NCBI GenBank assembly: GCA_046759445.1
Contig: JBHICG010000020.1
Span: forward strand, 1 to 50,044
Direction: 5' to 3'
Length of the DNA stretch: 50,044 nt
Origin: Candidatus Scalinduaceae bacterium
GTDB taxonomy: Bacteria > Planctomycetota > Brocadiia > Brocadiales > Scalinduaceae
The notes under the pieces are model-generated. The model saw nothing but the letters and a program-made list of their open reading frames with translations, was not told where the DNA came from and made no database searches. Made by a program: the position numbers and the translations under genes. This document shows, in pieces, positions 5,107 to 50,044 of the stretch; within the stretch, counting starts at the first letter, position 1; every line of letters begins with the position of its first letter.

Positions 5107-6123
5107 TTATGTTCCGCTTTGTCCATAATACTCCAAATACCACTCTATAAATTTTTTGATTCCTTCCTCAATTGGCGTGGCAGGCTTAAAGCCCACATCC
5201 ACTATTAAATCATCCACATCAGCATATGTTGCAGGGACGTCACCCAATTGTATTGGCAAAAGATTTTTCTCGGCATTTTTTCCCAAGCAACTCTCTAATA
5301 CTTCAATAAACTTCATAAGCTTTACAGGGTTATTGTTTCCGATATTGTATAATTTATATGGTGCATAACTCGTTGCAGAATCCGGATTAAGACCATTCCA
5401 GTTAGGATTTGGCTCAGGAATTTTATCAATCACCCTGATAACGCCTTCTATAATGTCATCAATATAGGTAAAATCTCTCCTCATCCTACCATAGTTAAAC
5501 ACATCTATTGGTCTATTTTCCAATATTGCCTTGGTAAACAAAAATAAAGCCATATCTGGACGTCCCCAGGGTCCATATACTGTGAAGAACCTGAGTCCAG
5601 TACATGGTAAGTTGTATAAACTCGAATATGTGTGGGCCATAAGTTCATTTGCCTTCTTGGTGGCAGCATAAAGAGATATGGGATGATCTACATTATGATG
5701 TACCGAAAAAGGCATCTTTGTGTTGGCCCCATAAACAGAGCTTGAAGAAGCAAAAACAAGGTGCTTAACACCATTGTGCCTGCATCCCTCTAGTATATTT
5801 AGGAATCCTACAATATTGCCATCTATATAAGCATGAGGATTTGTTAGTGAATACCTTACGCCAGCCTGTGCACCCAGATTTATAACATAATCAAACTGAT
5901 TTTCTGAAAAGAATTTTTCTATTCCTTTACGATCAGACAAGTCTAGTTTTTGAAAGGAAAATCCTGGTTTTCCTTCAAGCTTACGTAATCTGGCTTTTTT
6001 TAAATTAACATCATAATATGCATTAAGGTTATCAATCCCAATAACGTTATTCCCTCGCTCAAGCAGGCGTTTGGACAGATGAAAACCTATGAATCCTGCA
6101 GCCCCTGTTACTAAATAATTCAT
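5107..6123 (-). CDS. UDP-glucuronate 4-epimerase (Uge/CapI family SDR)
   Basis: [37 protein letters not shown]. Confidence 0.92.
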
Positions 6124-19121: not shown

Positions 19122-20249
19122 TTAGTCGCTTTTACCCTTTTTGCTTGATTCAAACCATTCCTTAATTAACTTCGCCCTTAATGACCCACGTTTTGACCGA
19201 TACAAATCCAAGTTGGTATAAAGTGTACATTTACGGCATATTTCAGGGAAATCCCCCTCCGCAAAGCGATATCTTAGCCTTTTGGTAGCTTCTGATGACC
19301 ACAACTCCAGAAAGTGTGATTCAAGTATATTGCCAATAATAAGTTCGCTTTGCGCATTGATGTCTCGGCAACCGCAAAGCCCTACCTTTCCATCCGCAAA
19401 AACTGTTGGCCCATCGTAGAGCAAGTAACACGGCTCTTTTTCAAGTATGCTCAAAGGTCTAATATGCATCCCGTCAAGCAGATCCTTCTGCCCAATCTCG
19501 CCCAGCCATGTATCAAAGTCTGTATTAAATTCTATCTCATGAGGGTATTCGCGTATGGCCTGATAATCAGGCAGTTCCAATGTTTTCTTCATAGACATGT
19601 TTGAACGAAAACTGATTTTAATACGAACAGGTCTCCCTGTATCGGCATTTATCTTCAACAATTGTGTTACGTTTTGATTGACTCTATGATATTCTTTGCT
19701 ACGGTAGATTGATTGATAAAGTTTTTCATCCCATGGCCCTGTACTTATATTTATGTCAGTAATACCTGATTGGAGCAATCCTTCTATTCCAACCTTATCA
19801 AGATTTATGCCATTTGTAATTGTTGTAATTTTCGTAATTTCTGACCGTGATCGTGCCACTTTAATACGTTCTATTAGTTTTGGATCGAGTAATGGGTCTC
19901 CAACACACGTATGTAGCCTAAGTTCTCCCCCCCCAATAGAGCAATAGTCGTCCAGGGCCTTGAAATAAACTGCATCTGACATAACTATCTTAGGACGGGT
20001 TTGAAACTTATAAGCACAAAAAATACACTTCGCATTACAAATATTCGTAGGTTCAATATGGAGATTCCAAGGCCGGACTTCAATATGCTGGAGATTTTGT
20101 AAAAATTCTAAATTAGAGACCCTATCAAGGTAATTAAAACGTTCCCTGAGCACCCGAATGACAGTCATCCAGAACTCAGGAGTGAGTACTTCTTTACGGC
20201 GATGGATTGCAAACAGAGTTATACGTTTGAAATTATTTCGTAGATTCAT
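19122..20249 (-). CDS. Radical SAM protein with SPASM/twitch domain
   Basis: CNAKCIFC, GDPLLD, C-terminal PC...DGKVGLCGC...IGN...CRKC. Confidence 0.85.
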   Translation of the reverse strand: MNLRNNFKRITLFAIHRRKEVLTPEFWMTVIRVLRERFNYLDRVSNLEFLQNLQHIEVRPWNLHIEPTNICNAKCIFCAYKFQTRPKIVMSDAVYFKALDDYCSIGGGELRLHTCVGDPLLDPKLIERIKVARSRSEITKITTITNGINLDKVGIEGLLQSGITDINISTGPWDEKLYQSIYRSKEYHRVNQNVTQLLKINADTGRPVRIKISFRSNMSMKKTLELPDYQAIREYPHEIEFNTDFDTWLGEIGQKDLLDGMHIRPLSILEKEPCYLLYDGPTVFADGKVGLCGCRDINAQSELIIGNILESHFLELWSSEATKRLRYRFAEGDFPEICRKCTLYTNLDLYRSKRGSLRAKLIKEWFESSKKGKSD

Positions 20250-25367: not shown

Positions 25368-26885
25368 TCAAGTTCTAATATAAGACTTTCTGTTTTTAAA
25401 ATAACACCAACTTCCCAAAAGAATCGCCATTATATCGAAACAAAGATGTTTAAAGTTTGGATGTTTACTCACTAACAGGGTTCTCCACCTTCTATACAAA
25501 AATTTTCTAAAATATTTGTATTGGAAAAAGTGCCTTGCCCGATTAGTATAAGAGGATTTGGAATATCTTTTTTCTAAATAGTCCCATACCTCTTTAAGTC
25601 TTGTTTCTGAAATTAGATTCTCTGTTTTCTTTATTCTCCCCACGTTAAAATCGTCGTACGTTTTATAATATGGACTCGAAGCAATGGATGATGCATATTT
25701 ATCGTACATATACGTTCCAGGCAAAGCAGTGGTATAAGATGCATTCATAAAATGTGGTTTAACTTTTTCTATTAGGTTAACTGACTCTGTTAATTCCGCT
25801 TCAGTCTCGGTTGGAGACCCTAACATGATATTAGCTTGGGCTGGAAGACCTATCTCATGACAAATATTATAGGCATTAATAATATCATCATAACTAAGCC
25901 CTTTACAGAAGACTTCTTCTCTTATTCTTGTGCTTCCTGCTTCAAAAGTCATAACAACACCTACACAACCAGCATTACGCATCTTTAATAATACGTCTTT
26001 CCTTGCTCTATTAATTCTTCCGTTCGCATGCCAGAGTATACTATTTAGTTTGCTCTGAATCATTAAATTACAAAATCTGGATGTCCAATCATAGTCATAC
26101 GAAAAGGTGTCATCGTTAATCCAAAGACCATTAACATCATACTTTCTTTTGAGTTCTGCTATTTCCGCAACAACATTTTCCGGAGATCTTTTTCTTGTTT
26201 TTTTCCCAAACATTAAATCAACTGTCGGTTGGCAAAATGTGCAATTGTATGGACACCCTCGAACAGTTATTAATAACAGGCTTGGACTACCAAGAGGATA
26301 ACCGGCTCTTCCACGTATTACATTTTCAGGCAAAAGCTCTCTATCTATAAAAGGAAGATCATCAAGATTATTTATATAATCTCCTTTCTCCGTGGTAATC
26401 AGTTTATTCTCTTTATCTAATAATGCAATGCCTTTTACATTTTCAAATGACGGCATGTTTAAGGATATATTTCTAACTAAATCAAGGATTGAAATTTCTC
26501 CTTCCCCTATTATACAGAAATCAACATGCTTGCTTTTCAATGTCTCTTGAGGACAAACTGTTGGATGAGGGCCACCTGCAACAATTGTAACTTTAGGAAA
26601 ATCCTTTTTTATACCCATTGCCACTTCTTCAGCTTTACCAGCAAACATTGTAGTTACACTCAGTCCTACAATATCAGGTTGAAACCCGAAAACTTCCTTT
26701 TGGACATAACTCACTTTGTCCTCAGTTGTTTTACCTTCAAGGCCAATAAGTTTTACTGCATAACCCTCCTTCTTTAGTACAGTTCCAATATACAGCAAGC
26801 CCATTGGTTCATTGTCCAATGGTTCTAAATAAACTAATAATATCCTCATATTATGCTTAGTTGTTTCAGCACTACACATACACAA
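25368..26885 (-). CDS. B12-binding domain radical SAM protein
   Basis: PMGLLYI, GGPHPT, GEGE, RGCPYNCTFC, DDTF, GSPTET. True start is probably MRILLV. Confidence 0.88.
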   Translation of the reverse strand: MCMCSAETTKHNMRILLVYLEPLDNEPMGLLYIGTVLKKEGYAVKLIGLEGKTTEDKVSYVQKEVFGFQPDIVGLSVTTMFAGKAEEVAMGIKKDFPKVTIVAGGPHPTVCPQETLKSKHVDFCIIGEGEISILDLVRNISLNMPSFENVKGIALLDKENKLITTEKGDYINNLDDLPFIDRELLPENVIRGRAGYPLGSPSLLLITVRGCPYNCTFCQPTVDLMFGKKTRKRSPENVVAEIAELKRKYDVNGLWINDDTFSYDYDWTSRFCNLMIQSKLNSILWHANGRINRARKDVLLKMRNAGCVGVVMTFEAGSTRIREEVFCKGLSYDDIINAYNICHEIGLPAQANIMLGSPTETEAELTESVNLIEKVKPHFMNASYTTALPGTYMYDKYASSIASSPYYKTYDDFNVGRIKKTENLISETRLKEVWDYLEKRYSKSSYTNRARHFFQYKYFRKFLYRRWRTLLVSKHPNFKHLCFDIMAILLGSWCYFKNRKSYIRT

Positions 26886-36002: not shown

Positions 36003-36848
36003 TCAAGTTGACTTCTTCCTGTTTTTCGCTGTTATAAGTGCATGTAACTTGCTTCTCTCGTCAAGACATCTTTGCACATTCATGATATTCCATACCAACC
36101 CCTTCAAGATCAAAGATGCCCTTCTAAAATCATTCAACACTATATTTTGAAGAACTCTACCAAAGTTTTTTAACACCAACATTAAAAACGTACTCGCTGT
36201 ATACCCTTCAATAATATTTATGAATTTCAACTCAATGTATATACGATTTTTATATGACATAAAATACTGAAAATCCGTACTATTTTTGATCGAGCTTGAA
36301 TTTGGAGCCTTTTGATTCTCAAAAATGTGTCCACCATCTACAAAAAAAGGAATTTTAAGTTTTTTTGCTTTAATGAAAAACTCTGTATCATCACCATAAA
36401 TACCAATATTTTCATCAAATAAATTGCCATTAAGGTTTTTAAGCACTTCTCGTTGCACTGCAAACACTGACGATGTATTGAGTGGCATATGTTCCCCATT
36501 TTCCCATTGTAGTTTGGGGAAATTAAACCCTGCGGATACTTGTTCTAAAAACCCTCGTAACATTCCTGACGTAAAGATCACATCTCCATCTATAAAAACT
36601 AATGTATCGCCTACACTCTCATTTATGCCGCGATTTCTGCTATAAGCAACATACAATCTATTCTTATTTCTAAGTATTTGTATTTTTCTGGCAAATTTTT
36701 GTCTCAATATCGTATATGTGTCATCATCTGAGCAATCATCTATCACAAGAATCTCTACGGCTTGAATTCTCTCTGACAAAACTTGCTCAATAAGTGGAAT
36801 GGTTAATCTCTTACTATTGTAAGTAGGTATAATGATCGAATATTTCAC
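36003..36848 (-). CDS. Glycosyltransferase family 2
   Basis: SIIIPTYN, IDDCSDD, SRNRG, FIDGD. Confidence 0.85.
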   Translation of the reverse strand: MKYSIIIPTYNSKRLTIPLIEQVLSERIQAVEILVIDDCSDDDTYTILRQKFARKIQILRNKNRLYVAYSRNRGINESVGDTLVFIDGDVIFTSGMLRGFLEQVSAGFNFPKLQWENGEHMPLNTSSVFAVQREVLKNLNGNLFDENIGIYGDDTEFFIKAKKLKIPFFVDGGHIFENQKAPNSSSIKNSTDFQYFMSYKNRIYIELKFINIIEGYTASTFLMLVLKNFGRVLQNIVLNDFRRASLILKGLVWNIMNVQRCLDERSKLHALITAKNRKKST

Positions 36849-37945
36849 TATACATTCCTTTGGAAAAAATGTGTTAGCCTTCCAATGTTATATCTCTTGA
36901 AACAAACAAAACATGTGTGAGTGCAATAACATTTATCAACTATTTCCCTTCGTCTATTGGCATCTTGACTGTTCCAAATCCCTTTAAAGTCATAATTATA
37001 GTCATGCAAGTTTCCGAGTGGTTGCATGAATTCGCAAAATGAAACATCAAGATTTGAATAAACCACTCCCATATCAGTGCCTGCTATACAATCCATAGTT
37101 CTCTTCTTATGCTTGACCGTTTTTAAACATGCTTTAAATCTGCTAACTGCTGTCACATGACCTATTATAGTTCTCACTATACCTGTTTTTTTTATTTGCT
37201 TTCTGGATCGTAAAAAATTCCCCCAATATATCTTGTAGAAGTCTTTGACATTTGTAGTTATTTTATTACAGAAATCCTCTCGGAGCGCTTCCTCTTCATC
37301 TCCCAAAACAGTATGAACCTGTATATTTATAGGAAGATTTGAATGTTTTACCGACCGCACCAATTGAAAAGCAAACGCCCCTCCTATCTCATTCCATATA
37401 AAATCCTTCATTACCTTTAAATACGGGAAGTTAATGCTATTAATTGTTGCGCCTAGTCCTGTGGAAAAATTTGGCCAAGGCTGTTCCAGCTCTTTTAGCT
37501 GGTAATACGTTCTCATTGCACTATCAAAACTTCCCTTTCTTCCTCTAATTTTATCATGAACATCCTCTGGCCCATCAATGGAAATTGAAACAGATATTTT
37601 CTTCTTAAAGTTTTTATTTTCCTGTAAAATTCTTTTTACTTTTTCAACGATTATCCGAGAATTACTACCATTAGTTGGTATCGCAATAGAATTAGCCCGT
37701 ATTTCTCTTACAATATCAACCACCTCTTTGTTCAAAAAAGGCTCTCCACCGGTGATTATTACATGATCCAAAGGTAATGGAAAATTTTGCATGATGAGTT
37801 TAATATCATTCGCCGAAAGATCTCCAATCGCGGAATTTAAATCTTCGGCATAAAAACAATGCTTACAACTCAAATTACACCTGTCAGTAATAAAAATAAT
37901 CAATCGTTTCGGCAGTTTGTTCTCAAAAGATAGTTTTGCGTTCAT
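36848..37945 (-). CDS. Radical SAM protein with SPASM/twitch-like C-terminus
   Basis: CNLSCKHC, TGGEPF, SIDG..HDKIRG, CIAG...CE...GNL...CYCTHTC. Confidence 0.85.
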   Translation of the reverse strand: MNAKLSFENKLPKRLIIFITDRCNLSCKHCFYAEDLNSAIGDLSANDIKLIMQNFPLPLDHVIITGGEPFLNKEVVDIVREIRANSIAIPTNGSNSRIIVEKVKRILQENKNFKKKISVSISIDGPEDVHDKIRGRKGSFDSAMRTYYQLKELEQPWPNFSTGLGATINSINFPYLKVMKDFIWNEIGGAFAFQLVRSVKHSNLPINIQVHTVLGDEEEALREDFCNKITTNVKDFYKIYWGNFLRSRKQIKKTGIVRTIIGHVTAVSRFKACLKTVKHKKRTMDCIAGTDMGVVYSNLDVSFCEFMQPLGNLHDYNYDFKGIWNSQDANRRREIVDKCYCTHTCFVCFKRYNIGRLTHFFQRNV

Positions 37946-38160
37946 AAGACCGCCTTAGAACTGATGTTATACATATATATTATATTATAACGTCCTCTAA
38001 GGAGAGGTGCCGACACATCTCTATCACATTTGTGCAGTCATAGAGGTTCACGTCAGTTAATCCAAGATGAAGTTTACTCGTCAAAGGCTGGTATTATTCT
38101 AACAGATACACATTCTAAAAAAGCTGGACTCCAGGTTCGTTTTCTGGTTTGCGACATATT

Positions 38161-38451
38161 ATGAGCCAAGAAAATGAGCTGAGAGTCCAAGGTCGAATTC
38201 TCACCGAATCAGAAATATCTTTCCTTCGTCAATTCATTCTAGATCACCCATCCTGGAGTCGCAGGAGACTAAGCGAGCAAATATGCCAAGCCTGGAATTG
38301 GCGTAATACCAAAGGGGATTTTAAAGACATGGCTTGTAGAGCCATGATGCTCAAACTAGAAAAACAGGGTTACATTACCATCCCGCCTCGTCGGCAGATT
38401 CCGGTTAATGCACAATCTTGGGTCACCTATAGAGATAATAGTCAAGAGTAA
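38161..38451 (+). pseudogene. Truncated DUF4338 (DruA-like, transposase-associated) N-terminal fragment
   Basis: HPSWSRRRLSEQICQAWNWR...KDMACRAMMLKLE is the typical start of this family. The ORF stops after about 96 aa. Confidence 0.65.
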
Positions 38452-38601
38452 AAACAAGTATTCCTACAAGATGATTCCTCAGAAAATTTAATTAATAACA
38501 AAAAATTAAATCCGTCGATTTCACTATCATAAGAAGCCCTGGATTTTAGATTACTTGTCAGAAGAACTAGGTTCTGCATCTATTAACTCAAAGGCCAGAA
38601 T

Positions 38602-38621
38602 TACACGGGCTTGCCCGTGTA
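38602..38621. repeat. Short REP-like palindrome
   Basis: TACACGGGC-tt-GCCCGTGTA perfect hairpin. Confidence 0.55.
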
Positions 38622-38799
38622 CATTTACTCTAGAATACAGTTTCTTGTTTAAATCAAGAAATTTTTTTAATGACTTTTTTATGGTATCTCATAGCTGAGT
38701 TATGGTTTTATGCATTATGCCTGTAATGATGGATAGATGCAGGGGATTGGCGGGTATTTGAAGGTTAAAATCTGTAAGCTGTGGAGGATAATATAAGAA

Positions 38800-38913
38800 A
38801 TGCCCCCAACGACTCTTTGTTGTTGGCCCAAGCAAGCAGTCATCGTACTCTTTAAATGCAGTATTATTGGATTTTCCATAGACTTCGGATGTGGACGTAA
38901 TAAGATTGATCAC
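38800..38913 (-). pseudogene. Fragment of an NAD-dependent sugar epimerase/decarboxylase
   Basis: LITSTSEVYGK...LLGPTTKSRW is an internal SDR segment. No Rossmann N-terminus. Confidence 0.6.
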
Positions 38914-38915
38914 GC

Positions 38916-39044
38916 TTACCTCCTTTTTAGGCAATCTAAAGCATCAAGGACACCGGAAACAGCCGTCTCCAAATTCCAGTCTCGTATTATTCTCCTTGAT
39001 TCAAATTTCATTGACTGAAGCAATTCTCGATCTCTTATGATATT
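38916..39044 (-). pseudogene. C-terminal fragment of a GT4 glycosyltransferase
   Basis: IIRDRELLQSMKFESRRIIRDWNLETAVSGVLDALDCLKRR* aligns by eye with the tail of the GT4 at 31404 (LIQSPELMEKMGKFSSEIISKWGYKEDLEGILSALEYVK). Confidence 0.5.
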
Positions 39045-39171
39045 TCATAAATTGCCATCTTCAACATTTTTGCCGATCACTACCTTATACGACGACATCT
39101 TAAAATCCTACTGAAACTACTGGGAATAGCAGGATTTGTTTCGGGAGGGACTCCCGAAACACAGGAAAAGA

Positions 39172-39290
39172 TTACAGAAATATCCAGGCATGCGGAAAAT
39201 GATGTCTTATGGCTGCCATTGCGGGTATAGCGCAAATGGTATCACCCAAATTCCCTATGCGGTAGAATAAAGTTCTCTGTATAGAGCATG
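39172..39290 (-). pseudogene. N-terminal fragment of a GT9 glycosyltransferase
   Basis: YRIGNLGDTICAIPAMAAIRHHFP matches LRKGNLGDTICAVPAMKAVKKRFP of the intact GT9 at 33412-34647, then stops. Confidence 0.7.
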
Positions 39291-39411
39291 GTGTTGCGTT
39301 TGTTGAGTCATTGCGTCGTTGCATCTTTGATGATAAATAAGAACGAAAGGTTTGCAATAAGCAGGATTATGGGGAAAATATTTGTCAATGGAATTTTCCC
39401 TAATATCTGAT

Positions 39412-39547
39412 AAGCACCAAATAACAAATCCCAAATAACAAACAAATTCCAATGACCAAATCCAAAATTACAAACAAACTGGTTTGGATCATTCGGTAAT
39501 TGTAATTTGGAATTTGTTTGGAATTTGTAATTTGAGATTTGTAATTT
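39412..39547. repeat. Inverted array of degenerate ~7-bp repeats
   Basis: Left arm (CAAATAA/CAAATCC/CAATGAC units) faces right arm (TTGTAAT/TTGGAAT/TTGAGAT units). Confidence 0.7.
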
Positions 39548-39665
39548 ATTAACTCCTGTTTGGTTCTGGCTTGTCCAGGTTGAAGTGGTGAGAGTTAGGA
39601 GCAAAGAGAGGGTATGATATAACCAGCGTAATCTCCATCTAACGTGGAAACAGTAATCTTAATTT

Positions 39666-41897
39666 CTAACAAATCGTCGCTGTTTTCTTCTTTGATTCCC
39701 CTTCTCTACCATATCCATATCCATGCCTGTTATACGAAGCGTAATAATGATAGAAATAACTTCCTCTAGAAACATTTATATAATTCATGACAACACCCAA
39801 TATTTCAATTTTTGTGTTTCTGATTTGTGATATAGCTCTCTCGACTACTTTCCTCTCGTGTACACCAGATTTGACTAAAAATATCACTCCATCTAAAATA
39901 TTTGACAGGACAACCGCATCGGTAACAACCAATGAAGGTGGCGCATCGAAAATAACTGTATCATACCTTTCTCTTACAGTCTTGCAGAACTTTTCCATAC
40001 TGTTCGTACCCAATAGCTCTGAAGGATCAGGAGGAATCCTTCCACACGTAATAATGCTAAGATTAGGTATACTCGTAGACTTAATAATAGGCTCTAATTC
40101 GATTTCTCCAATAAGATAATCACTTAAACCTGGTTTCCTCTTAACATCAAATACTTCATTTAATCTGGGATTACGTAAATCTGCATCCACAACTAATGTA
40201 TTCTTGCCTGTTTGTGCTATTGCAACGGCAAGATTAGAAGCAACAAATGTCTTACCCTCACCCTTAGCTGTGCTCGTAATCAAAAATAATTTTTTGGGAT
40301 TGCTATCAGATGATAACATTATGCTTGTCCTTATGTTTCGGAAGGCCTCTGCAATATTTGATTTAGGCGTCTTATGAGTAATTATATCAAAAGAAGACTT
40401 TTTTTTACCATTTAGAGCTTTCACTTTCTCAAATGCGCCTAAGAGTGGAAGACCTAGATAGCGTTCAACGTCTTCAGGACTTTTTGCGGTTTTGTCAAAG
40501 CCTTCAAGCAAAAACGCCATACCAATTCCCAGGGTTAGCCCAATTATTGCTGCAAGTGTAATATTAAATATTTTCCTGGGTTTGATAGGAGATTTAGGGA
40601 TCTCAGCAGCATCAATAATTCTTGTATTACTTGTCTGCAGTTCTCCTTTAATGTCAGTTTCTTTCAACCTTTTTAGTAATATTCCGTACATAGCCCTTTC
40701 GCTTTCAGACTCTCTCTTTAACGTGCCATAGGCAATCGCCTTCCTATTAAGTTCCAGGGCCTTTTCCTTTTGGTCTTCAAGTGCTTTAGAAAGACTTTCT
40801 TCTTTTGACAATGCCACTTTATATTTTGTCTCCAGGCTTTTTACTAATTCATTTAGCTCAGTATTTATTCTATCTTTCTGCTCTTTAGCCTGTGCAACAA
40901 GCTTTACTAAGGTAGGATATTTTTCACCGTACCTACCACGTAATTTAGTAATCTCTGCTTTTGTATTTATATAATTTTTCTTCAACGCTTGAATAAGAGA
41001 ATTGTCCACAACATATGCAATGGATTCAATCATATCGGGATTATCAGAGAGTTTTTTTGTCTGGTTATAGAGAGTTTCCAGACCTATTCTTTCTGTTCTA
41101 ACATTTGTTAAGACTGTATTTAGATCCTCAAGTTTTTGGACTATGATATTTTGCCTGTCTTCAAGGGAAACAATTTTTTCCCTTTCCTTATATAGTTGCA
41201 AGGCATTTTCTGCTTTCTGTACCATTTCCTTTTTTTCATAAAGTTGCTTCTCAAGCAACTTAACTGCATATCGTGATGCAGCAAATCTCGCCTCAAGATT
41301 TCTTGTTATATATTCGTTGGCGTGCTTATTGACAATTGTCGTTATAATATCTGGATGAACTCCTTCAAAGCTTATGTTAACGAGGTGACTGCCCCTTACC
41401 GGTTTGATCTCTAATTTATTAAGATAGCTATCAATTAATTTGGAATTTTCATCGTCATTGTCAGATTTCTGAGATTCCTTTTCAGGACTTAGTTTTTTTA
41501 CAAGTAAACCTAAGATACCCCTAATGCTAAAATCCCTTGACTTTTCATCAGATTTAAATTCTGGACTATCCTTTAAGTTTAGCGAATTTATAACCCTCAG
41601 GGCAAGAGAACGACTAGCCAATATATTATATTGAGTTTTATGAAACATTTTAACTGTACTATTTAGCGACAGTACATCTTTGAATGCAATGACATTCGAA
41701 TTTTCTCTTTCAAACATCACTTGTGTTGTAGCTTGATAAATAGGAGTGGTTTTGAAAGAAAAGATGGTTGCGGTTGTAACCAATATGACGAAGAACGCCA
41801 TGATAATCCACTTGCGTCTAATAATAACCTGCCAATAATCTCTCAGATCAGCTTCTTCTACTACTATATTGTCATTTATATTGTTATTTTTCATCAA
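39666..41897 (-). CDS. wzc: Polysaccharide co-polymerase / BY tyrosine autokinase (Wzc/GumC)
   Basis: Wzz-like N-terminus, coiled coil, SPIKP, second TM, GEGKT, VDADLR, FDAPP, C-terminal Tyr cluster YFYHYYASY..GYGY. Confidence 0.95.
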   Translation of the reverse strand: MMKNNNINDNIVVEEADLRDYWQVIIRRKWIIMAFFVILVTTATIFSFKTTPIYQATTQVMFERENSNVIAFKDVLSLNSTVKMFHKTQYNILASRSLALRVINSLNLKDSPEFKSDEKSRDFSIRGILGLLVKKLSPEKESQKSDNDDENSKLIDSYLNKLEIKPVRGSHLVNISFEGVHPDIITTIVNKHANEYITRNLEARFAASRYAVKLLEKQLYEKKEMVQKAENALQLYKEREKIVSLEDRQNIIVQKLEDLNTVLTNVRTERIGLETLYNQTKKLSDNPDMIESIAYVVDNSLIQALKKNYINTKAEITKLRGRYGEKYPTLVKLVAQAKEQKDRINTELNELVKSLETKYKVALSKEESLSKALEDQKEKALELNRKAIAYGTLKRESESERAMYGILLKRLKETDIKGELQTSNTRIIDAAEIPKSPIKPRKIFNITLAAIIGLTLGIGMAFLLEGFDKTAKSPEDVERYLGLPLLGAFEKVKALNGKKKSSFDIITHKTPKSNIAEAFRNIRTSIMLSSDSNPKKLFLITSTAKGEGKTFVASNLAVAIAQTGKNTLVVDADLRNPRLNEVFDVKRKPGLSDYLIGEIELEPIIKSTSIPNLSIITCGRIPPDPSELLGTNSMEKFCKTVRERYDTVIFDAPPSLVVTDAVVLSNILDGVIFLVKSGVHERKVVERAISQIRNTKIEILGVVMNYINVSRGSYFYHYYASYNRHGYGYGREGESKKKTATIC

Positions 41898-41954: not shown

Positions 41955-42076
41955 TTGCCGAAAGTAGGCTCTGTAAGAGAGGAATTCCTTAATTCCTAAA
42001 TCGCCAATCGTTAATTGTGAGCCCCGCTGCTTCCTTGCCGAAAGTAGGCTCTGTAAGAGCGGAAGCAAGGATGCGG
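41955..42076. repeat. Two copies of the 25-bp repeat TTGCCGAAAGTAGGCTCTGTAAGAG, one nested in a larger hairpin
   Basis: Exact copies at 41955-41979 and 42035-42059, with a third at 46615-46639. Confidence 0.85.
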
Positions 42077-42084
42077 AGCTAAGT

Positions 42085-42882
42085 TTACATATAAGTTTCC
42101 GGTACAACAACAACATCTCCAGGTTTTAGTATAATATCTAATGATTTATCACCTTTTCTTACCTTATTTAGATTAACCATTATAGTTTTCTCTTCTCCTT
42201 CTTCAACTCTGATAACCTTGATCCTATTTGGCGCTGCAAATTCTGTAAATCCACCTGCTTTGGCAACAGCTTCAAGCACACTTAAGTACTTGCCGAGTAT
42301 TGGTATTGCTCCTGATGTAGTTACTTCTCCAACGACAAAGACTTCTTTTTCCTTATGCCGCTCCATTAGCTGAATATCGAGCATTATGGTAACCTTTGGA
42401 TTTTTTATATAGCCATCCCTTAACCGTTCTTCCATAACTTTTTCCACTTCTTGAGTAGTTAATCCCTTTACATTTATACCTCCAATAAGTGGATAAGCAA
42501 GTATTCCTTCATCTGATACTCTTATACTCATGCTTAAGCCAGGTTCATCATAAATCTTAATGCCCAATATATCGTAACTATCAATTAAATATCTTTCTCT
42601 AAATTTAACATTAGTAATATTTTGATAATCAACCGCACTACTACTCTTTCTATATTCAGAACATCCAACTAAAGCAAAAAATAATAAACACGTTAGTAAA
42701 CCCCGTTGGAATTTCCCGCCCAGATGAATCCCCGTTCGCCCGCCTGCCATTTGTCGGGCAGGGACGGGCGTACGGAACATTAACACCCGTGAGAAAAAAC
42801 GGGCACTATCTAATTTTATCATCCCCCTGCTTACGCTCGATGCATTCCTACGGAGTAAATTTGAAACTAATTCTCTCAACAT
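42085..42882 (-). CDS. wza: Polysaccharide export lipoprotein (Wza/Poly_export plus SLBB)
   Basis: Lipobox LVGC, YPLIGGINVKGLT, VFVVGEV, AGGFTEFA, LKPGDVVVVP. Confidence 0.9.
   Translation of the reverse strand: MLRELVSNLLRRNASSVSRGMIKLDSARFFSRVLMFRTPVPARQMAGGRTGIHLGGKFQRGLLTCLLFFALVGCSEYRKSSSAVDYQNITNVKFRERYLIDSYDILGIKIYDEPGLSMSIRVSDEGILAYPLIGGINVKGLTTQEVEKVMEERLRDGYIKNPKVTIMLDIQLMERHKEKEVFVVGEVTTSGAIPILGKYLSVLEAVAKAGGFTEFAAPNRIKVIRVEEGEEKTIMVNLNKVRKGDKSLDIILKPGDVVVVPETYM
42701..42859. mobile_element. 159-bp MITE-like insertion in the wza signal-peptide region
   Basis: AGTAAA direct repeats at 42695-42700 and 42854-42859. Imperfect terminal inverted repeats CCCCGTTGGAAT / ATTCCTACGGAG. Internal nested palindromes. 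Confidence 0.65.
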
Positions 42883-43927: not shown

Positions 43928-45379
43928 ATGCGTTCGGAGCATATTAAGTTTATGTATCTAGTCCACTCTATTATAAAAACATGTGTTTTTTGTGTAATCG
44001 TGTTCATAATTTCAGGGATTTCGTCTGCTCAAGAAAATCAGACGACGGAGAGTGAAAATAGTTTATTCAGAAATAATATTGTTGAATTGTTAGGGAATAT
44101 TCCTAAATATTCCAAAAATCTAAACATTGGCCCGTTAAGATTATATCCCTCATTTGAGATATCGGAGGCCTTTGATGATAATGTCTTCGATGCAGCAGAT
44201 CCAGACGGTGTAACCGGTGATTTCTACACTACCTATAAACCTGCCATTTCACTTGTATTACCAATAAAGAAAAAAAAACATTTCCTTGAATTAAATTATA
44301 GCTCTGAAATTCACGAGTACACACGTGATTATTCACGCACTAATCAAGTAACAAATCAAGAACAAGACCATGTTAACCAATACTTTGGCGGCTCAGTAAA
44401 CCTCAATTTTCATAAAGGGTTCAGCGTCCATCTGTCTAACCAGACTTCCATGATTAGAGTACCTAGCAGTTTTACACGGCGTACGAATCCTCAAGTTCAA
44501 TTTCTAGGAGAACCTCCTGAGGAAGGTGAAGAACCAGAAGTCCTTGAACAGTTTGGATTTAATACATTTTCACCTCGAAGAGACCTGACTTACAACGTAG
44601 CATCGATCGTAATAAACCTGCCAGACTTTTTTGATAAGCTTGATTTCGATATTCATTATTCCAATCGAGATATCTCTTACAAAGGTAGGAAATTCAATGC
44701 AAGTGAACGTAACGAAGATCTTTTTGGAGGCGCTCTCATAATCAAACCCTTACCAAAAATCAGGATAACAACAGGCTTTGATTATGGGATCATAAAATAT
44801 GATTCTGCTTTCAGGAATGATTCTACCGTTCAAAGGATCCCCTTCAATATTTCCTGGCAACCCACGGACAAAAGCAATTTTTTTCTTGATACAAGTTACA
44901 ATACCAGAGATTATGGCCGCAGAAGTATTTTTGAGAATTTTCATGGTTATGATGCCACGTTAGGATACAGGTTTAACGTTGCAGAGAGAGATGAATTGAC
45001 AATAAAATTCGAAAGGAGTTTGAAAGAAGAACAATTTCAAACAGATCCGCTGATTTCATCTTTAGGAGATAATAATCCATATTTCTTTACACAACTCAAT
45101 GTAGATTACGTCCATAAATTTCACAGAAATATTTCCTTTATATTTTCACCTGCCTTTCAAACATTGAGGTTTCTTGAAAAGGATATAGATCTTATGTCTG
45201 GAGTCATTAAACGCGAGAAGGTAGACTTGATAAGAGTTAAAGTAACGGCTAGATATGATACACGCCGGGAATGGCTCTTTGGTGAAATTTCGTATAGCTA
45301 TCAGGACCGTGATAGTAATTTTGAAGATGGAGATTTGGTAAAAAATGTAGGACAAATCAGTGTGGGAATAAATTTTTGA
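43928..45379 (+). CDS. Outer-membrane beta-barrel protein of the type found in EPS loci
   Basis: Signal peptide (ISSA-QE), FDDNVF motif, alternating amphipathic strands, C-terminal Phe (VGINF). Confidence 0.8.
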   Translation: MRSEHIKFMYLVHSIIKTCVFCVIVFIISGISSAQENQTTESENSLFRNNIVELLGNIPKYSKNLNIGPLRLYPSFEISEAFDDNVFDAADPDGVTGDFYTTYKPAISLVLPIKKKKHFLELNYSSEIHEYTRDYSRTNQVTNQEQDHVNQYFGGSVNLNFHKGFSVHLSNQTSMIRVPSSFTRRTNPQVQFLGEPPEEGEEPEVLEQFGFNTFSPRRDLTYNVASIVINLPDFFDKLDFDIHYSNRDISYKGRKFNASERNEDLFGGALIIKPLPKIRITTGFDYGIIKYDSAFRNDSTVQRIPFNISWQPTDKSNFFLDTSYNTRDYGRRSIFENFHGYDATLGYRFNVAERDELTIKFERSLKEEQFQTDPLISSLGDNNPYFFTQLNVDYVHKFHRNISFIFSPAFQTLRFLEKDIDLMSGVIKREKVDLIRVKVTARYDTRREWLFGEISYSYQDRDSNFEDGDLVKNVGQISVGINF

Positions 45380-46491
45380 TTTTAATAAATATGGGAGACC
45401 CACTCAGGGCTTTTTATACACTAGCGGTTTTAAATCCACAAGAGGAGGATGTTCTAACTCTCCGTGCCTCTCATGTCGACTGGGACACCGTAGTTAAGAT
45501 TTCCTTTGAATTAAATTCTTCATATATATTTTATACAAACATAAAACGCTTTGGACTCGAGGCTTGCTTCAATTCCACAAACATCAAACGACTTCAAGCT
45601 GAAAAAGAATCGGCGATTTTCAATAATCTAATCCAGATAAAACATTTACATGAGATTTCAGGATTATTGCAAGCAAAAAACATTAAATTTATTCCGTTGA
45701 AAGGGCTATCTCTTATCACTGACACATATCCGGATATCGGGATGCGGATCAGTGCAGATCTGGACATCCTCATCCATCCTACTAATTTTGACAAATGTGC
45801 TGAAGTATTAAAGAAATCTTCATACAAATTTGAGCCCTCCCTAACCCGTGGCGTGATGACCAATCACGGCCAAGAGTGCATTGCGGTGTCTCAAAATAAT
45901 CTTGGGATAGATATACATTACAGATTTTTTGCATGGTATGAGGAAAAATATATTTTCAAAATCGATATTGCAAAGTTTTATGAAAATACCGTGAACAAAC
46001 ACTGGAAAGGCTATGATCTTGCTTATATGAAGAAAGAAGACGAATTTTATTACCTTCTGATGTGTATCTTTAGGTACCGCTTATGTACTTTCCGATACTA
46101 CCTTGATGCGGATGCAATCCTTAAGGTACATGGGGCAAATTTTGATTGGACTTTGGTAAAATCATATCTGTGGAGCAGCTCACTTAAACAATACTGGAAG
46201 ATACTCCTCAATTTCATGCGAGATAGACTGAAGACACCCATTCCCTATGAGTTGGCGCTACCCGAAGACGATGTATCCGAGAAAGCTTATTTATTCTTAC
46301 TTGACAAGCGCATTATGAAGCCCTGCACTAACAAGACTAAAACCCAGCTATTCTATCTTCACGCTGCTCAAAAATTCGTAGATAAGTTGGCGCTTGTGTT
46401 GTTATTTCTGAAATGGCAGCTCTTCAAACGTTTTGGATGTTTTAGGAGCTTTTTTATTGCCCATAATAATCCTAGACGCAATGGAACCTAA
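45376..46491 (+). CDS. Nucleotidyltransferase family protein (NTP_transf_5-like)
   Basis: IPLKGLSL, YPDIGMRISADLDILI, IDIHY. Start may be ATG 45391. Confidence 0.85.
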   Translation: MILINMGDPLRAFYTLAVLNPQEEDVLTLRASHVDWDTVVKISFELNSSYIFYTNIKRFGLEACFNSTNIKRLQAEKESAIFNNLIQIKHLHEISGLLQAKNIKFIPLKGLSLITDTYPDIGMRISADLDILIHPTNFDKCAEVLKKSSYKFEPSLTRGVMTNHGQECIAVSQNNLGIDIHYRFFAWYEEKYIFKIDIAKFYENTVNKHWKGYDLAYMKKEDEFYYLLMCIFRYRLCTFRYYLDADAILKVHGANFDWTLVKSYLWSSSLKQYWKILLNFMRDRLKTPIPYELALPEDDVSEKAYLFLLDKRIMKPCTNKTKTQLFYLHAAQKFVDKLALVLLFLKWQLFKRFGCFRSFFIAHNNPRRNGT

Positions 46492-46677
46492 TCATGCCTT
46501 CGGTATGACGCCGCTGGTTCAATCTTGTAGATTGAACCTTGCGTTTCCCTCTCCTCCTGTGGAGATTGCGTCACAAGGTCATTCTGAGCCCCCACTTCTT
46601 GCCCCTGCGCTTTCTTGCCGAAAGTAGGCTCTGTAAGAGCGAAAGCAAGATGCTGGGGCAGTGGGGGCGAAGAATCT
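46491..46677. repeat. Cluster of palindromes between convergent genes, including a triple-nested REP-like element (46578-46677)
   Basis: TCATGCC-ttcg-GTATGA; GGTTCAATCT-tgt-AGATTGAACC; GTCATTCTGAG[CCCCCAC...GTGGGGG]CGAAGAATCT. Confidence 0.75.
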
Positions 46678-46697
46678 CTTTATTTGTGTTTCGGCAT

Positions 46698-47576
46698 TCA
46701 ACGGCCTTGCCCCTGCAACCCTTCTATAAGCTCACATGCCCTATCCAAATTCCTCATTTCCAGGGTATAACACCTCGCCCTCTGTGCAAGCTTTATGCAT
46801 ATCTTTAGACCTCCGTCAGGAAATAGTTTTTGGTTCCAGCCGTTCTGCATTAGGCCAATCACGGCTTGAGCGGGAGCAAGTGGTTTTAATTCGGTTTTAC
46901 CTTTAGTGGTGTACCTGAGGAAAATAATCCGATCCACTCTCCATCTGGCGTCTTTAGGCATGATGGCGCCGTCTTGAGGTATAAAGTACGTCCATCTATT
47001 GGTAGTAGTACCATCATCATAACGGAAGCGATAGACTGAGAAATCCTTGACTACCTCTTGGCTAAGGGGACGTGACCATGTTCACGCAAAGATGTGCCTC
47101 TGGTAGGGAACCACCTCCAGAGTCTCATGATGGATGACACTCACCTCGTCTGTAAGATACCTATAACCGCAATTCATGAGCCCCAGGGTAAGGGTGGACT
47201 TCCCACTTCCAGACTCCCCCGGCAAGAGGATGGCCCTGCCGTTTTTTACTAACGCGCCGGAATGGAATATTAAATAATCCCTCACCTGCTCGCAACAGCT
47301 TTCTCTAATTTGGTGAACTAGAAGTGGGCGTAACTGAGGATCTTCTGCTCGATGGTAGATTGTACGTCCATCCTTCTCTATGTGCGTATACTTCCTCTTC
47401 TTCATCACCCTGAATCTTACTGCAGGTGGTTCCCCGTTAGCCGGTAATGCCAGTGCCGAGGTAAAATCACAAAATTCCTTTAAGAAGGATTTATGGTTGG
47501 TGGTTATTTCTATCGAAAGGGAGAGAACCTTCATATTGTGCGTTGAAAGTTCAGTGGCACGAGTCGCCTTCTTCAC
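46698..47576 (-). pseudogene. HprK-related P-loop kinase interrupted by one in-frame TGA (47082-47084)
   Basis: HSGAL, Walker A GESGSGKST, YLTDE. The same frame continues 40 codons past the TGA into ORF 46698-46961 (LAPAQAVIGLMQN...LDRACELI). GTG start overlaps the upstream stop and has a GGAGG RBS. Confidence 0.8.
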
Positions 47577-49153
47577 TTTAATGCCTCCTCAAGAAGGCCT
47601 TTCCCCTGGAATTCCTCGATCATATTAGTAACATCCCTTTCCACCTGAACAGTGTCAGCCGTTAGAACATCGACGATTTCCTTCGTTATATCCTTAACAG
47701 TATGGTTCCCGTCACATAGGTCCCAGATAACGATACCCAAAAGGTTCAGGTGATGCACGTTGTGATTCCTTGAGTCGTAAATGACTATCTCATCATCAAC
47801 ATCTCCACTGACAATGTCCCCCCTTTTCCTCGGTTTTCCTTTCATTTTCTTTCCTCCATTTCTTTTTATAAGCCCGGTATATGGATTATATCGGCATCGC
47901 GGGTTTTTAGATAATAAATCCCCTGTAGTGGTCTGTGCCAGGGCCCTGCAGTCAAAACACCCGTAGCGCAGCTCACAGTCCCTGCAGGTCTCTACCTCCT
48001 CCAGGGTTATCTGCCAGAGCCTCTGAAGGGCCCGCCTCTGTACTATCTCCTCCAGCCTCATCTCAGGAAATTTGCCTACAGACATCTGCCTTGCAAATAT
48101 GCAAGGATATACGTCTCCTTCACTACTTATGGCTATCTTGCCCTTCCAGCAGGTACCCCGGGTAAACCCCTTGTCACAGGCCCCCTGCCCTTCTTCAGAC
48201 GATGATGACGGCTTAAACGGGGTTACCTCAGTACAAACGTCTCTTCCCATGAGGGCAGATTCCGCCTCTCCCCTGCCAGTCGGCCTCACATAGTCCCATT
48301 CAATCTCCTTGTCCTTCAAGCCCAATCCCTTCAGGAACTCTACTGTATATGTAAGGTGGTACATGTTCTCCCTCATGAGGACTATGGCCACCCTTACAGG
48401 TATGTTATGGGCTAGGATGGCCCTTATACCCTGCGCCGTCTGACGGAAACTCCCGGTCCTCCCGGTAATGGTGTCATGCGTCCTGGGGTCGCAGGAGTAA
48501 AACGACAATGCCACCCTTACACCTGATAAGGCCCACTGTTGTAAAAGGCAGTCTTCAAGTCGGGTAGCGTTGGTAAAGACCTCTATCTCGCTGTACCGGC
48601 ATGACCGCGCATATTCTATAAGCTCCATGAGTCCCGGGTATAGGGTAGGTTCGCCTCCTGTGAACTGGACCTTCTTAGCGCCAAGCCGTGCACATTCAGA
48701 GAGTATGTCCTTCCACTGTTCAAGGGAAATATGTTCCCTCTCCATTGATGGAAGATGTTTAGGGTGAGGGTGGTTAGTTCCTGCCCCTTCATAGCAGTAT
48801 GCACAGAAAAGGTTACAGGACTTTGTGAGTTCCAGCCACACATAATCAAGACCAACCGGCCCTGACGCGTAAGACAAGTTTTGAATAGTTTCCTTCGAGA
48901 ACTCCTTGTTACTACTCCAGCTATCAGATAGTCCAGTAAGTGCAGGATGCCTTGCTAAATAGCTCCTGAGAACCTTGAGAGTATCTTCTTTAGATTTGCA
49001 GGACTGGTCTTCATCGAGCCAACCCTCAATGAGCTCAGCCATCAGAGGGTTTACAGAATAGACCTCTCCATTCTCAAGGTCATACAGGGCAGTATTGACG
49101 GGCCCCTTTACGGCGACGATATGGCTGCTTGTAAGGAAGGCTCCGTAACCCAT
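47573..49153 (-). CDS. Radical SAM/SPASM peptide maturase fused to a C-terminal PqqD/RRE domain
   Basis: CNLFCAYC, FTGGEP, SPASM CWKG...GDVYPC...CRDCELRYGCFDCRA...C. The last 90 aa are PqqD-like (EIVIYD..HHLN..IWDLCDG..DV..GLL). The N-terminal ALYDLENGEVYSVN segment is also RRE-like. Confidence 0.9.
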   Translation of the reverse strand: MGYGAFLTSSHIVAVKGPVNTALYDLENGEVYSVNPLMAELIEGWLDEDQSCKSKEDTLKVLRSYLARHPALTGLSDSWSSNKEFSKETIQNLSYASGPVGLDYVWLELTKSCNLFCAYCYEGAGTNHPHPKHLPSMEREHISLEQWKDILSECARLGAKKVQFTGGEPTLYPGLMELIEYARSCRYSEIEVFTNATRLEDCLLQQWALSGVRVALSFYSCDPRTHDTITGRTGSFRQTAQGIRAILAHNIPVRVAIVLMRENMYHLTYTVEFLKGLGLKDKEIEWDYVRPTGRGEAESALMGRDVCTEVTPFKPSSSSEEGQGACDKGFTRGTCWKGKIAISSEGDVYPCIFARQMSVGKFPEMRLEEIVQRRALQRLWQITLEEVETCRDCELRYGCFDCRALAQTTTGDLLSKNPRCRYNPYTGLIKRNGGKKMKGKPRKRGDIVSGDVDDEIVIYDSRNHNVHHLNLLGIVIWDLCDGNHTVKDITKEIVDVLTADTVQVERDVTNMIEEFQGKGLLEEALK

Positions 49154-49188
49154 AGGAATTCACCATAAACTTTAAGACACACACAAGC

Positions 49189-49368
49189 CTAGCTAGGCAG
49201 GCATTGAGCAGGGTTACATTTAGGTAAACACCTTTTCGCTGCATGGGCCTCGTCACTCAATGCAATTATAGTAGTGACTATGGGTATGGTGTATACACCC
49301 AGCTTCAACAACCTGCGGCGTGTCATTCGCTTCTGTTCTTCAGGACTATCGCTTTGTTTATCCAGCAT
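49189..49368 (-). CDS. Putative RiPP precursor, 59 aa, Tat-like leader plus Cys-x-Pro core
   Basis: Hand translation MLDKQSDSPEEQKRMTRRRLLKLGVYTIPIVTTIIALSDEAHAAKRCLPKCNPAQCLPS*. AGGAGG lies 6 nt upstream, and the ORF ends 35 nt before the rSAM start. It is just under the apparent 60-aa cutoff of the ORF track. Confidence 0.85.
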   Translation of the reverse strand: MLDKQSDSPEEQKRMTRRRLLKLGVYTIPIVTTIIALSDEAHAAKRCLPKCNPAQCLPS

Positions 49369-49447
49369 TTTGCGCCTCCTGCTCTCGGCTTATACATAAT
49401 AATAACATGTATTGCATTTTGGTAAATATTACAACTTGCAGAATAAA

Positions 49448-49531
49448 GGTGGATTCGCTTCGCTTAATCCACCTTACATATAACAAATTATGTTACGGAG
49501 GGTGGATTAAGGACGATAGGACGAATCCACC
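49448..49531. repeat. Inverted pair of REP palindromes (REPIN-like)
   Basis: GGTGGATTcgcttcgcttAATCCACC and GGTGGATTaaggacgataggacgAATCCACC in opposite orientation. Confidence 0.7.
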
Positions 49532-49615: not shown

Positions 49616-49748
49616 TGTCATTCTGACCCCGCATCCTTGCTTCCGCAAGGAAGCAGCGGGGGAAGAATCTCTTTTTAGCGGGCCTTAGTCCCCCCACTTC
49701 TTGCCCCGTTGCTTTCTTGCTGAAAGCAAGATGCGGGGCAGTGGGGGG
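49616..49748. repeat. Two nested REP-like palindromes lacking the 22-nt inner insert
   Basis: TGTCATTCTGA[CCCCGC...GCGGGG]GAAGAATCT (49616-49670) and CCCCCACTTCTTGCCCC...GGGGCAGTGGGGG (49690-49748). Confidence 0.75.
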
Positions 49749-49835
49749 ATTTATTCACTATTGACCATATTTTCGGAGTAAACTCAATAACCATTTTATT
49801 TAGGTATCATATTCTTATTCTCTCGATAAAGTGTC

Positions 49836-50044
49836 ATGAGTAACTCACACTCACCTGATAAAGACTATGACCTCGTCTCAAAAGGCGCTGAACTATGCCA
49901 ATCCTGCGGACTTTGCTGTAAGGGAATGCTGCACGACCGTATAGACCTTGAAATTGATGAGACCGAACTAGTAAGCCAACTGGGACTAACCCCTTACCAG
50001 AAGAAAGTTGATTACGATGCTTTCGATTTGCCATGTCCATGTTT
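49836..50044 (+). CDS. YkgJ family (CxxCxxCC) cysteine-cluster protein, partial
   Basis: Hand translation MSNSHSPDKDYDLVSKGAELCQSCGLCCKGMLHD...FDLPCPC. Open to the window edge and not in the ORF track. Confidence 0.8.
   Translation, partial: MSNSHSPDKDYDLVSKGAELCQSCGLCCKGMLHDRIDLEIDETELVSQLGLTPYQKKVDYDAFDLPCPC

Follow-up and report, generated by a model that had tools for sequence, protein, structure and literature searches.

Among the described peptides that are made by ribosomes and modified after translation (RiPPs), the closest counterparts of the cassette reported here are the linear polyphosphorylated peptides (LPP; lppA-K-B-S-D-N; Popov et al. 2026, PMC13381572), the paeninodin and pseudomycoidin lasso systems (PadeK/ThcoK; PsmK/PsmN) and the systems of the radical S-adenosylmethionine (SAM) maturases SkfB (6EFN), StsB and CteB (5WHY). 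The cassette lies near the end of contig JBHICG010000020.1 of a Candidatus Scalinduaceae bacterium (assembly GCA_046759445.1), whose 50,044 analysed nucleotides are called the window. It consists of genes for a 59-residue precursor peptide, a radical SAM/SPASM maturase with a fused C-terminal PqqD domain of the RiPP recognition element (RRE) type, an HprK-related kinase and a nucleotidyltransferase (NTase) of the NTP_transf_5 family (PF14907). We regard it as a conserved and apparently undescribed RiPP variant, of which the kinase/NTase/RRE module itself is known from paeninodin, pseudomycoidin and LPP. Judged by its sequences, it would resemble an SkfB-type maturase grafted onto an LPP/paeninodin-type module and belong to neither family. 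Loci, genomes and contigs are designated below by L, G and C numbers; the window is contig C20 of genome G000.

The comparison draws on parts of PMC13381572, PMC8498205, PMC9266682, PMC13638132, PMC6231123, PMC7771511 and PMC10288494. LPP systems share with this cassette a YxxP leader, an RRE whose Tyr-binding Asp and Asn are the same in both, an HprK-like kinase, an NTP transferase, a capsule locus and cleavage of the signal-peptidase type, and their phosphoserine near the start of the core (S3) is comparable to the Ser that precedes the first Cys in 85/140 representatives of the present precursor family. They differ in occurring in Bacillota, in having no radical SAM enzyme in the parts of PMC13381572 consulted, and in using a dedicated archaeal-type SpI peptidase with an MsbA-like exporter, both of which are absent from the window cassette and the scanned neighbours. 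The RRE is discrete in LPP systems, and in the cassette described here it is fused to the radical SAM enzyme (it is free in sister cassettes that lack the enzyme), and the leader carries twin arginines. From the paeninodin and pseudomycoidin systems it differs in its Cys-x-Pro (CxP) core and in a kinase motif with Asp-Glu instead of Asp-Asp; neither a lasso cyclase nor a B2 peptidase was found in the window cassette or its flanks, and B2 was seen only at L015/16. With SkfB, StsB and CteB it shares an N-terminal RRE followed by radical SAM and SPASM/twitch domains, a likely open auxiliary cluster I (AuxI) site and a Cys-rich precursor, but its CxP units are short and in tandem where those systems have hairpin Cys/acceptor pairs, and it adds a C-terminal RRE as a second one, with a kinase and an NTase as partners.

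No NCBIfam family was reached above its cut-off by the window proteins, 21 precursors or five other radical SAM enzymes of the group. The maturase scores far below the curated models for StsB (91/625), AlbA (79/850) and SkfB (66/300), and the PapB model is not reached either. The HPr-rel-A families (TIGR04352 kinase, TIGR04353 PqqD) likewise bring kinase, PqqD and PF14907 genes together, and TIGR04352 is the best model for these kinases, but three intact kinases score 117, 103 and 158 against a cut-off of 200 and the PqqD 19.5 against 35; in the cassette here both the precursor and the radical SAM enzyme are identified. SynChlorMet (ScmC/D/E/F) also combines a radical SAM/SPASM enzyme, a PqqD and an HprK-like protein, but there is one radical SAM enzyme here and not two, and the scores remain low (ScmE 79/400, ScmC 21/125, ScmD 39/100). 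The grasp-with-spasm model TIGR04193 gives 86 against a cut-off of 175, and no ATP-grasp gene occurs among the scanned neighbours. A CxP radical SAM family, such a cassette or a twin-arginine RiPP precursor was not found described in the literature covered, which included few subscription papers; the PMC10288494 dataset may list such enzymes.

The initial annotation, made from the DNA letters and their translations alone, had proposed a tight minus-strand operon of the peptide, radical SAM and kinase genes converging on the NTase gene. Open reading frames (ORFs), the ribosome-binding site and Pfam matches agree with the gene positions, and the operon stands, with 35 nt between the peptide and radical SAM genes and a 4-nt overlap between the latter and the kinase gene. 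A small ORF of this kind was indeed found beside homologous radical SAM genes, and the 59-residue ORF is a conserved RiPP precursor. Its leader runs from TRRRLLK through a 16-residue uncharged stretch containing YxxP to an A-H-A site (around residue 43), and its 16-residue core holds three CxP units and ends in CLPS (p=0.0016 for three units in a within-core shuffle). The precursor profile collects 258 representatives at E ≤ 1e-3 after clustering at 50%. For a sample of 30 precursors, a CxP filter had served to select the seven from unfused loci and had first brought five leader-bearing ones to notice. In this sample Pro stands at +2 of 147/167 core Cys, compared with 44 ± 5 (maximum 63) in shuffled cores. 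The corresponding figure for the 23 leader-bearing precursors is 126/141, and for the best 150 of the 258 representatives (149 parsed) 560/617, a count that is biased because the profile includes core columns. The precursor of genome G333, examined afterwards as a fresh test, has CxP at 3/3 Cys and ends in Ser. Back-to-back (CxP)n arrays reach up to 27 units (L023).

An unbiased test is given by short sister radical SAM enzymes (twitch-type, without the N-terminal RRE and AuxII), which were chosen independently of CxP. At least two terminal CxP units of their own are present in 25/29 distinct complete ones; 166/179 tail Cys are CxP, and the distal tails contain 161 such units where shuffling gives 37 ± 5. 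At L080 the tail on the enzyme is accompanied by a near-copy as a separate ORF. The converse case is provided by cassettes that lack the enzyme. The leader was found in 12/132 class genomes, nine of which have no copy of the radical SAM gene, and all nine complete precursors from eight of these genomes are Cys-free and end in Leu-Ser (that of G368 is cut by a contig end). Five such loci are complete, with a free RRE of about 85 residues, a kinase, a precursor and an NTase and no radical SAM gene between them; four of their RREs are 43-48% and four of their kinases 41-47% identical to those of the window. In G034 this form has the same amidase and methyltransferase/GT4 flanks as the radical SAM form in a congener (L001). 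The CxP units thus go with the radical SAM enzyme, an assignment that follows from the tails of the sister enzymes and from the Cys-free cores where the enzyme is missing, and in Brocadiales the terminal Ser goes with the kinase arm, since the cassettes that keep the kinase and lose the Cys still end in Ser.

A scan of metagenome contigs, in which 383 stretches were confirmed and the best 80 kept, gave 29 loci with a radical SAM-PqqD fusion after removal of duplicates. Kinase and NTase profiles were built from three seeds each, and the co-occurrence counts leave out eight loci that are truncated at the 3' end. Where at least 600 bp of downstream sequence was available (n=25), the kinase was present at 23 fused loci, the NTase at 16 and one or both at all 25, compared with 0/28 for relatives without the fusion (0/4 SPASM relatives without PqqD and 0/24 short ones), so that the co-occurrence expected in the initial annotation was borne out. 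The convergent NTase is kept in L005-L008, with 81-84% identity for L006 and L008, and its conservation argues for membership in the cassette, even though it is poorer in guanine plus cytosine (GC). Our tree of the radical SAM enzymes is a quick version with weak deep branches and served for grouping only.

The Radical_SAM, SPASM and C-terminal PqqD domains recognised initially all score above their Pfam cut-offs in the 526-residue enzyme, to which a second, N-terminal RRE-like domain must now be added. This domain gives a profile match of 93.5% to the C-terminal PqqD and has a beta3-alpha3 arrangement in an AlphaFold model of low confidence (mean predicted local distance difference test score 67). 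By sequence (E 7e-34) and by fold, the best match of the enzyme in the PDB is SkfB. Seven SPASM Cys are invariant in 33/33 sequences and an eighth (C326) is present in 17/33, which fits the open AuxI site reported for CteB and SkfB in the part of PMC6231123 available. At the six catalytic-site-proximity positions, as defined in a partly available source (PMC10288494), the enzyme has Y-T-F-S-I-F, SkfB Y-T-F-S-Q-L, StsB Y-T-I-S-K-L and CteB F-F-T-S-H-Q, so that positions 1-4 equal SkfB (4/6). Thioether formation is therefore the reaction that these sequence features would favour, and with CxP units standing back to back, the thioether should be local.

A different chemistry would have the enzyme oxidise each Cys singly, as the anaerobic sulfatase-maturating enzyme (anSME) does on CxPxR and as SbtM does, with a thioaldehyde leading to formylglycine, enethiol or 5-thiooxazole units. 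Such a peptide would serve as a poly-aldehyde cross-linker or as a metal chelator, and Pro would be there for recognition only. The sulfatase motif has CxP at its core, and SbtM makes a thiooxazole from Cys (PMC13638132, PMC7771511, each available in part). The isolated SPASM region also has anSME as its best, weak PDB sequence match (E 0.008), and arrays of up to 27 units would suit unit-by-unit oxidation. However, among the CxP units of the 30 precursors only 7 have Arg at +4, the AuxI Cys is followed by Ile, Val or Thr in 33/33 sequences and not by the Asp of anSME, which acts there as a base, the seven invariant Cys contrast with the eight conserved Cys and fully ligated clusters described for anSME, RRE domains are present, and positions 1-4 of the active site equal those of SkfB. 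Since CxP is the core of CxPxR, an anSME-like oxidation stays a real, if unlikely, rival.

The fused PqqD domain may be made in two forms. An in-frame ATG with a Shine-Dalgarno-like site stands at its start in 24/28 fused genes, where the remaining sequence of these genes predicts 0.8, and sites of at least 5 nt occur in 21, where it predicts 0.2. The internal start is kept across linkers that differ in amino-acid sequence, and its retention at about 35-40% protein identity argues for use, although it may possibly be a mere relic of gene fusion. A free PqqD is thus a probable second product of the fused gene, and such a predicted protein would match the free RRE of the cassettes without a radical SAM enzyme. 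The C-terminal RRE of the window enzyme can be aligned with TbiB1, TfuB1 and LppB, and it retains residues equivalent to D70 and N33 of LppB, which are reported in PMC13381572 to hold the YxxP leader.

The kinase retains His105, Lys126 and Asp143, with Glu144 in place of Asp, in a gene that is broken in the window; both halves match TIGR04352 below its cut-off, and the precursor beside it ends in Ser. A C-terminal Ser or Thr is found in 10/10 CxP precursors of the Brocadiales type (nine and that of G333), whose cores are unrelated. Outside Brocadiales, the first Cys is immediately preceded by Ser in the 85/140 representatives mentioned above, as against 56/482 for later Cys, and a terminal Ser or Thr is commoner without this site (12/30) than with it (11/120; kin not independent). 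The two positions would mirror the phosphorylation sites of paeninodin (C-terminal Ser) and LPP (S3, near the core start; PMC13381572), as given in the partly available sources. An (S/T)xC motif tried as a kinase marker in the 30 precursors was weak, being present also at 4/7 kinase-less loci, and was replaced by the 140-representative count. The downstream partner matches PF14907 with 107 bits (cut-off 31.2) and has a Pol-beta-type fold in fold comparison; neither it nor the N-terminal domain of the radical SAM enzyme gave a significant match in sequence searches of the PDB.

The peptide is probably exported, to judge from its leader. By simple pattern rules for twin-arginine translocation (Tat) signals, the window precursor fits the Tat-substrate pattern (RRxFLK-like n-region, uncharged h-region, A-x-A site), and among the best 150 representatives, RRx-hydrophobic-hydrophobic occurs in 147, an uncharged run of at least 13 residues in 144, A-x-A/G/S in 133 and a fixed RR-to-Tyr distance in 142. 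Genome G000 contains tatC. Five precursors without RR (L012, L013, L023, L024, L035) have a stand-alone twin-arginine PqqD upstream, complete at four loci and cut at L023, a complementarity that rests on two or three lineages; the L013 protein has homologs named Latescibacterota. At L015 the leader is instead of the lasso type and a B2 peptidase scores above cut-off, and at L022 there is no clear RR, with neither a twin-arginine PqqD nor B2 in view.

We therefore put forward, with a probability of about 0.6, a modular RiPP cassette that would operate in six steps. It builds on gene order, conservation and co-variation, from which we infer the chemistry and the export. First, the YxxP of the precursor would dock on the lasso-B1-type PqqD/RRE, for which the conserved pocket residues give us high confidence. 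Secondly, and with equal confidence, the radical SAM enzyme would act on each CxP unit; that it forms a local thioether from the Cys sulfur to a carbon, with a loss of 2 Da for each unit and the +2 Pro as a plausible acceptor, has only slightly better than even odds. Thirdly, the free PqqD from the internal start would, rather probably, serve the kinase, which in the fourth step would very likely (poly)phosphorylate a Ser, in Brocadiales the C-terminal one and in other lineages the one that precedes the first Cys. The fifth step, addition of a hexose or nucleotide to that phosphate by the PF14907 protein, is somewhat favoured, and in the sixth the product would leave by Tat and signal peptidase I cut after A-x-A, which we consider likely. 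Only tentatively can this be widened to a widespread undescribed RiPP class with a new three-residue Cys-to-Pro thioether (or other new Cys modification) at every CxP, one gene giving the enzyme and a free RRE for the kinase/NTase arm, and a phospho-glyco peptide that would leave by Tat, guided by its own twin-arginine leader or carried along by a twin-arginine RRE.

Several observations weigh against the six-step scheme. The L031 precursor has CxP at 0/5 Cys although it lies beside a fused radical SAM gene, and catalytic positions 5-6 (Ile-Phe) are unlike those of SkfB, StsB and CteB. In the kinase, Asp-Glu replaces the Asp-Asp with which the lasso-kinase motif His-Lys-Asp-Asp ends, and the gene is broken both in the window and in L007 (where the radical SAM gene is also split), that is, in 2/7 close loci with a kinase in view. 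The terminal Ser emphasised in the initial annotation, or a Thr in its place, is found in 10/10 Brocadiales-type precursors and 9/9 Cys-free sisters, but a terminal Ser or Thr is absent from 20/21 other, non-Brocadiales precursors and present in one, so that terminal Ser as a family-wide trait is ruled out. The kin compared are not independent: the loci without the radical SAM gene span five genera, but 4/8 genomes share one genus. LppN, the analogous NTase, had no detectable effect in a heterologous host according to the available part of PMC13381572. No precursor matched a generic Tat-signal model of NCBIfam, and only that of L089 matched TIGR04519, weakly. Finally, the precursor at a second locus of G034 (L147) is Cys-free, ends in Gly and lies beside a different radical SAM gene. 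This locus (L147:6254-12499) holds the twin-arginine precursor, the unrelated radical SAM/SPASM gene, an RRE, a kinase and an NTase, followed by wza and wzc.

The window copy itself is probably impaired. A TGA at codon 165 of the kinase gene (47082-47084) lies in frame and removes 127/292 residues; homologs have TGG at this position in 4/5 cases and Asn in L009. Recoding or selenocysteine insertion is ruled out by the TGG of the homologs and the use of TGA to end other cassette genes, and an assembly error by contigs of runs X1 and X2 that span the site with 0 differences, both runs being from one study, with X1 possibly the source. In RNA runs X3 and X4 a contig covers the site with one other letter at a place not shown, and is uninformative on the allele; nor are contigs evidence that the gene is transcribed. 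Low-level readthrough may occur. A substitute kinase in G000 is limited to a distant copy on contig C6 (24% identity), and there is no second precursor. With the kinase truncated, the tailoring arm is probably dead here and the fully tailored product probably not made; very probably this copy makes only a Cys-modified, unphosphorylated peptide or begins to decay.

Carried further, the locus could be a recently acquired, non-functional remnant without a product. The nonsense codon recurs in contigs from both runs, GC exceeds the genome's by 10-12 points, sister locus L007 is decaying, and the radical SAM gene was not found in two congeners or in the other 25 family genomes searched. Overall the enzyme is patchy, occurring in 3 of 132 class genomes and 4/301 phylum genomes, G000 included, and in 0/40 kin genomes of a relatives search. 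Against decay to a remnant stand the intact frames of the peptide, maturase and NTase, the persistence of short and unfused relatives without a kinase in view, and the similar numbers of synonymous and non-synonymous differences from the intact, 93% identical kinase of L005 on either side of the stop (12/7 before, 7/8 after), by which the break looks recent. We find this explanation doubtful.

Attachment of the peptide to the neighbouring glycan, raised in the initial annotation, found no support. In its fullest form, the leader would be an enzyme-docking helix only, and the cytoplasmic peptide would be joined through its phosphate to a lipid-linked repeat unit or other exopolysaccharide (EPS) glycan and leave with it. 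The NTase gene abuts EPS genes, FKRP is a weak fold match of the NTase (E 0.011), LPP and paeninodin clusters also lie in capsule loci according to partly available sources, and glycan genes flank L001, L009, L012/13, L021, L024/41, L031 and L147. However, L015, L030, L089, L090/91 and most loci without the radical SAM gene show no glycan genes within view, so that the EPS association noted initially is frequent but not constant. Moreover, the leaders conserve RR, h-region and A-x-A alike, a PqqD with twin arginines is found beside precursors that have no RR, and the cassette holds no dedicated peptidase or exporter; we consider such joining improbable. That the Cys instead form disulfides or bind metal while the enzyme epimerises or desaturates other residues is most unlikely, given that the Cys vanish exactly where the enzyme is missing, that odd Cys numbers are common and that sister enzymes bear CxP tails of their own, set against a nearest named Atlas cluster of methylamine dehydrogenase light chain (0.90, 117/256 features shared), which is a lead only.

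Under the six-step scheme, orphan HprK-like/PqqD/PF14907 cassettes beside glycan loci, which the initial annotation had described as having no known product, would gain named substrates, with enzymes matched to residues. The form with a radical SAM enzyme is apparently undescribed, but the module as such now has a product class, LPP, in the available part of PMC13381572. The open question of the NTases PsmN and LppN would become testable on short linear Ser-terminal peptides, and a candidate radical SAM reaction on Cys-x-Pro, repeated up to 27 times per core, is of interest for peptide stapling. Two designs were not found in the literature searched, namely the export of a RiPP by Tat, also with a twin-arginine RRE as its carrier, and a maturase gene that keeps an internal start for a free RRE.

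Table 1. Coordinates of the cassette genes, of their context in the window and of the stand-alone twin-arginine PqqD proteins at other loci
Feature	Position	Strand	Remarks
Precursor peptide, 59 aa	49189..49368	-	AGGAGG before ATG; family of 258 representatives
Radical SAM/SPASM maturase, 526 aa	47573..49153	-	N-terminal RRE-like domain (~aa 12-77), TIM barrel, SPASM with 7 invariant Cys, fused C-terminal PqqD/RRE
C-terminal PqqD/RRE domain	47573..47845	-	own GGAGG and in-frame ATG (Met437); LppB D70 and N33 equivalents kept
HprK-related kinase (TIGR04352-like)	46698..47576	-	TGA at codon 165; close homologs have TGG
NTP_transf_5 (PF14907) nucleotidyltransferase-fold protein	45376..46491	+	convergent on kinase; layout as in L005, L006, L007, L008
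EpsL/BBP2-like outer-membrane protein of glycan locus	43928..45379	+	context
wza	42085-42882	-	context; head of glycan/EPS cluster
wzc	39666-41897	-	context; with wza, head of ~40-kb glycan/EPS cluster running towards position 2101
Stand-alone PqqD/RRE with twin-arginine signal	L012:5291-5722, L013:2000-2386, L024:1290-1673, L035:800-1240		beside RR-less precursors

Genome G000 comprises 3.6 Mb at 37% GC. The nearest named homologs of the window are from Planctomycetota/Ca. Brocadiales, which points to a host of the anammox group, and the best-matching DNA sources of the locus are hydrothermal-vent metagenomes. The peptide, radical SAM and kinase genes have 47-49% GC and the NTase gene 38%. 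Most of the window is taken up by one glycan/EPS cluster, and the NTase gene, initially placed next to wza/wzc, is in the same region but separated from them by the EpsL-like gene. Four radical SAM genes inside the cluster (15089-16540, 25368-26885, 19122-20249, 36848-37945; two B12-dependent, one SPASM) and several methyltransferase genes suggest a heavily modified polysaccharide. About 1.7 kb without a long ORF (37946-39665) contains, by eye, transposase-like and glycosyltransferase-like fragments. A promoter and terminator scan gave chance-level results only. Short palindromic or direct repeats lie at 41955-42064, 46581-46675, 49463-49511 and 49627-49749, including both ends of the cassette, and the first, second and fourth are dispersed over many G000 contigs.

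Diverging from the peptide gene, a CxxCxxCC ORF (49836-50044, plus strand; YkgJ-like by motif, no NCBIfam match) is cut by the contig end; its membership in the cassette is unsupported, no such ORF having been found near other radical SAM loci. Contig C6 of G000 carries a second PqqD-kinase-NTase cassette (L003:8618-12218) without a radical SAM gene or recognisable precursor and with a transposase-like remnant between kinase and NTase, and on C48 a lone PqqD (L004:7591-7902) adjoins a cyclic-nucleotide-binding-type ORF, with no precursor seen. The short CxP-tailed radical SAM enzymes (L036-L084) have no kinase or NTase nearby. At L021 a PEP-CTERM protein (5118-5927) sits between the CxP precursor and the radical SAM gene. 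A copy of the YxxP leader without a core ends ORFs at L139:6262-7056, L142:5471-6073, L143:3611-4411, L145:180-974 and L148:5968-6483; those examined have a Cys cluster (YkgJ-like by motif) and no Pfam match, and may possibly act as an RRE decoy or adaptor. In G034 such an ORF is joined to the precursor (L140:6339-7208).

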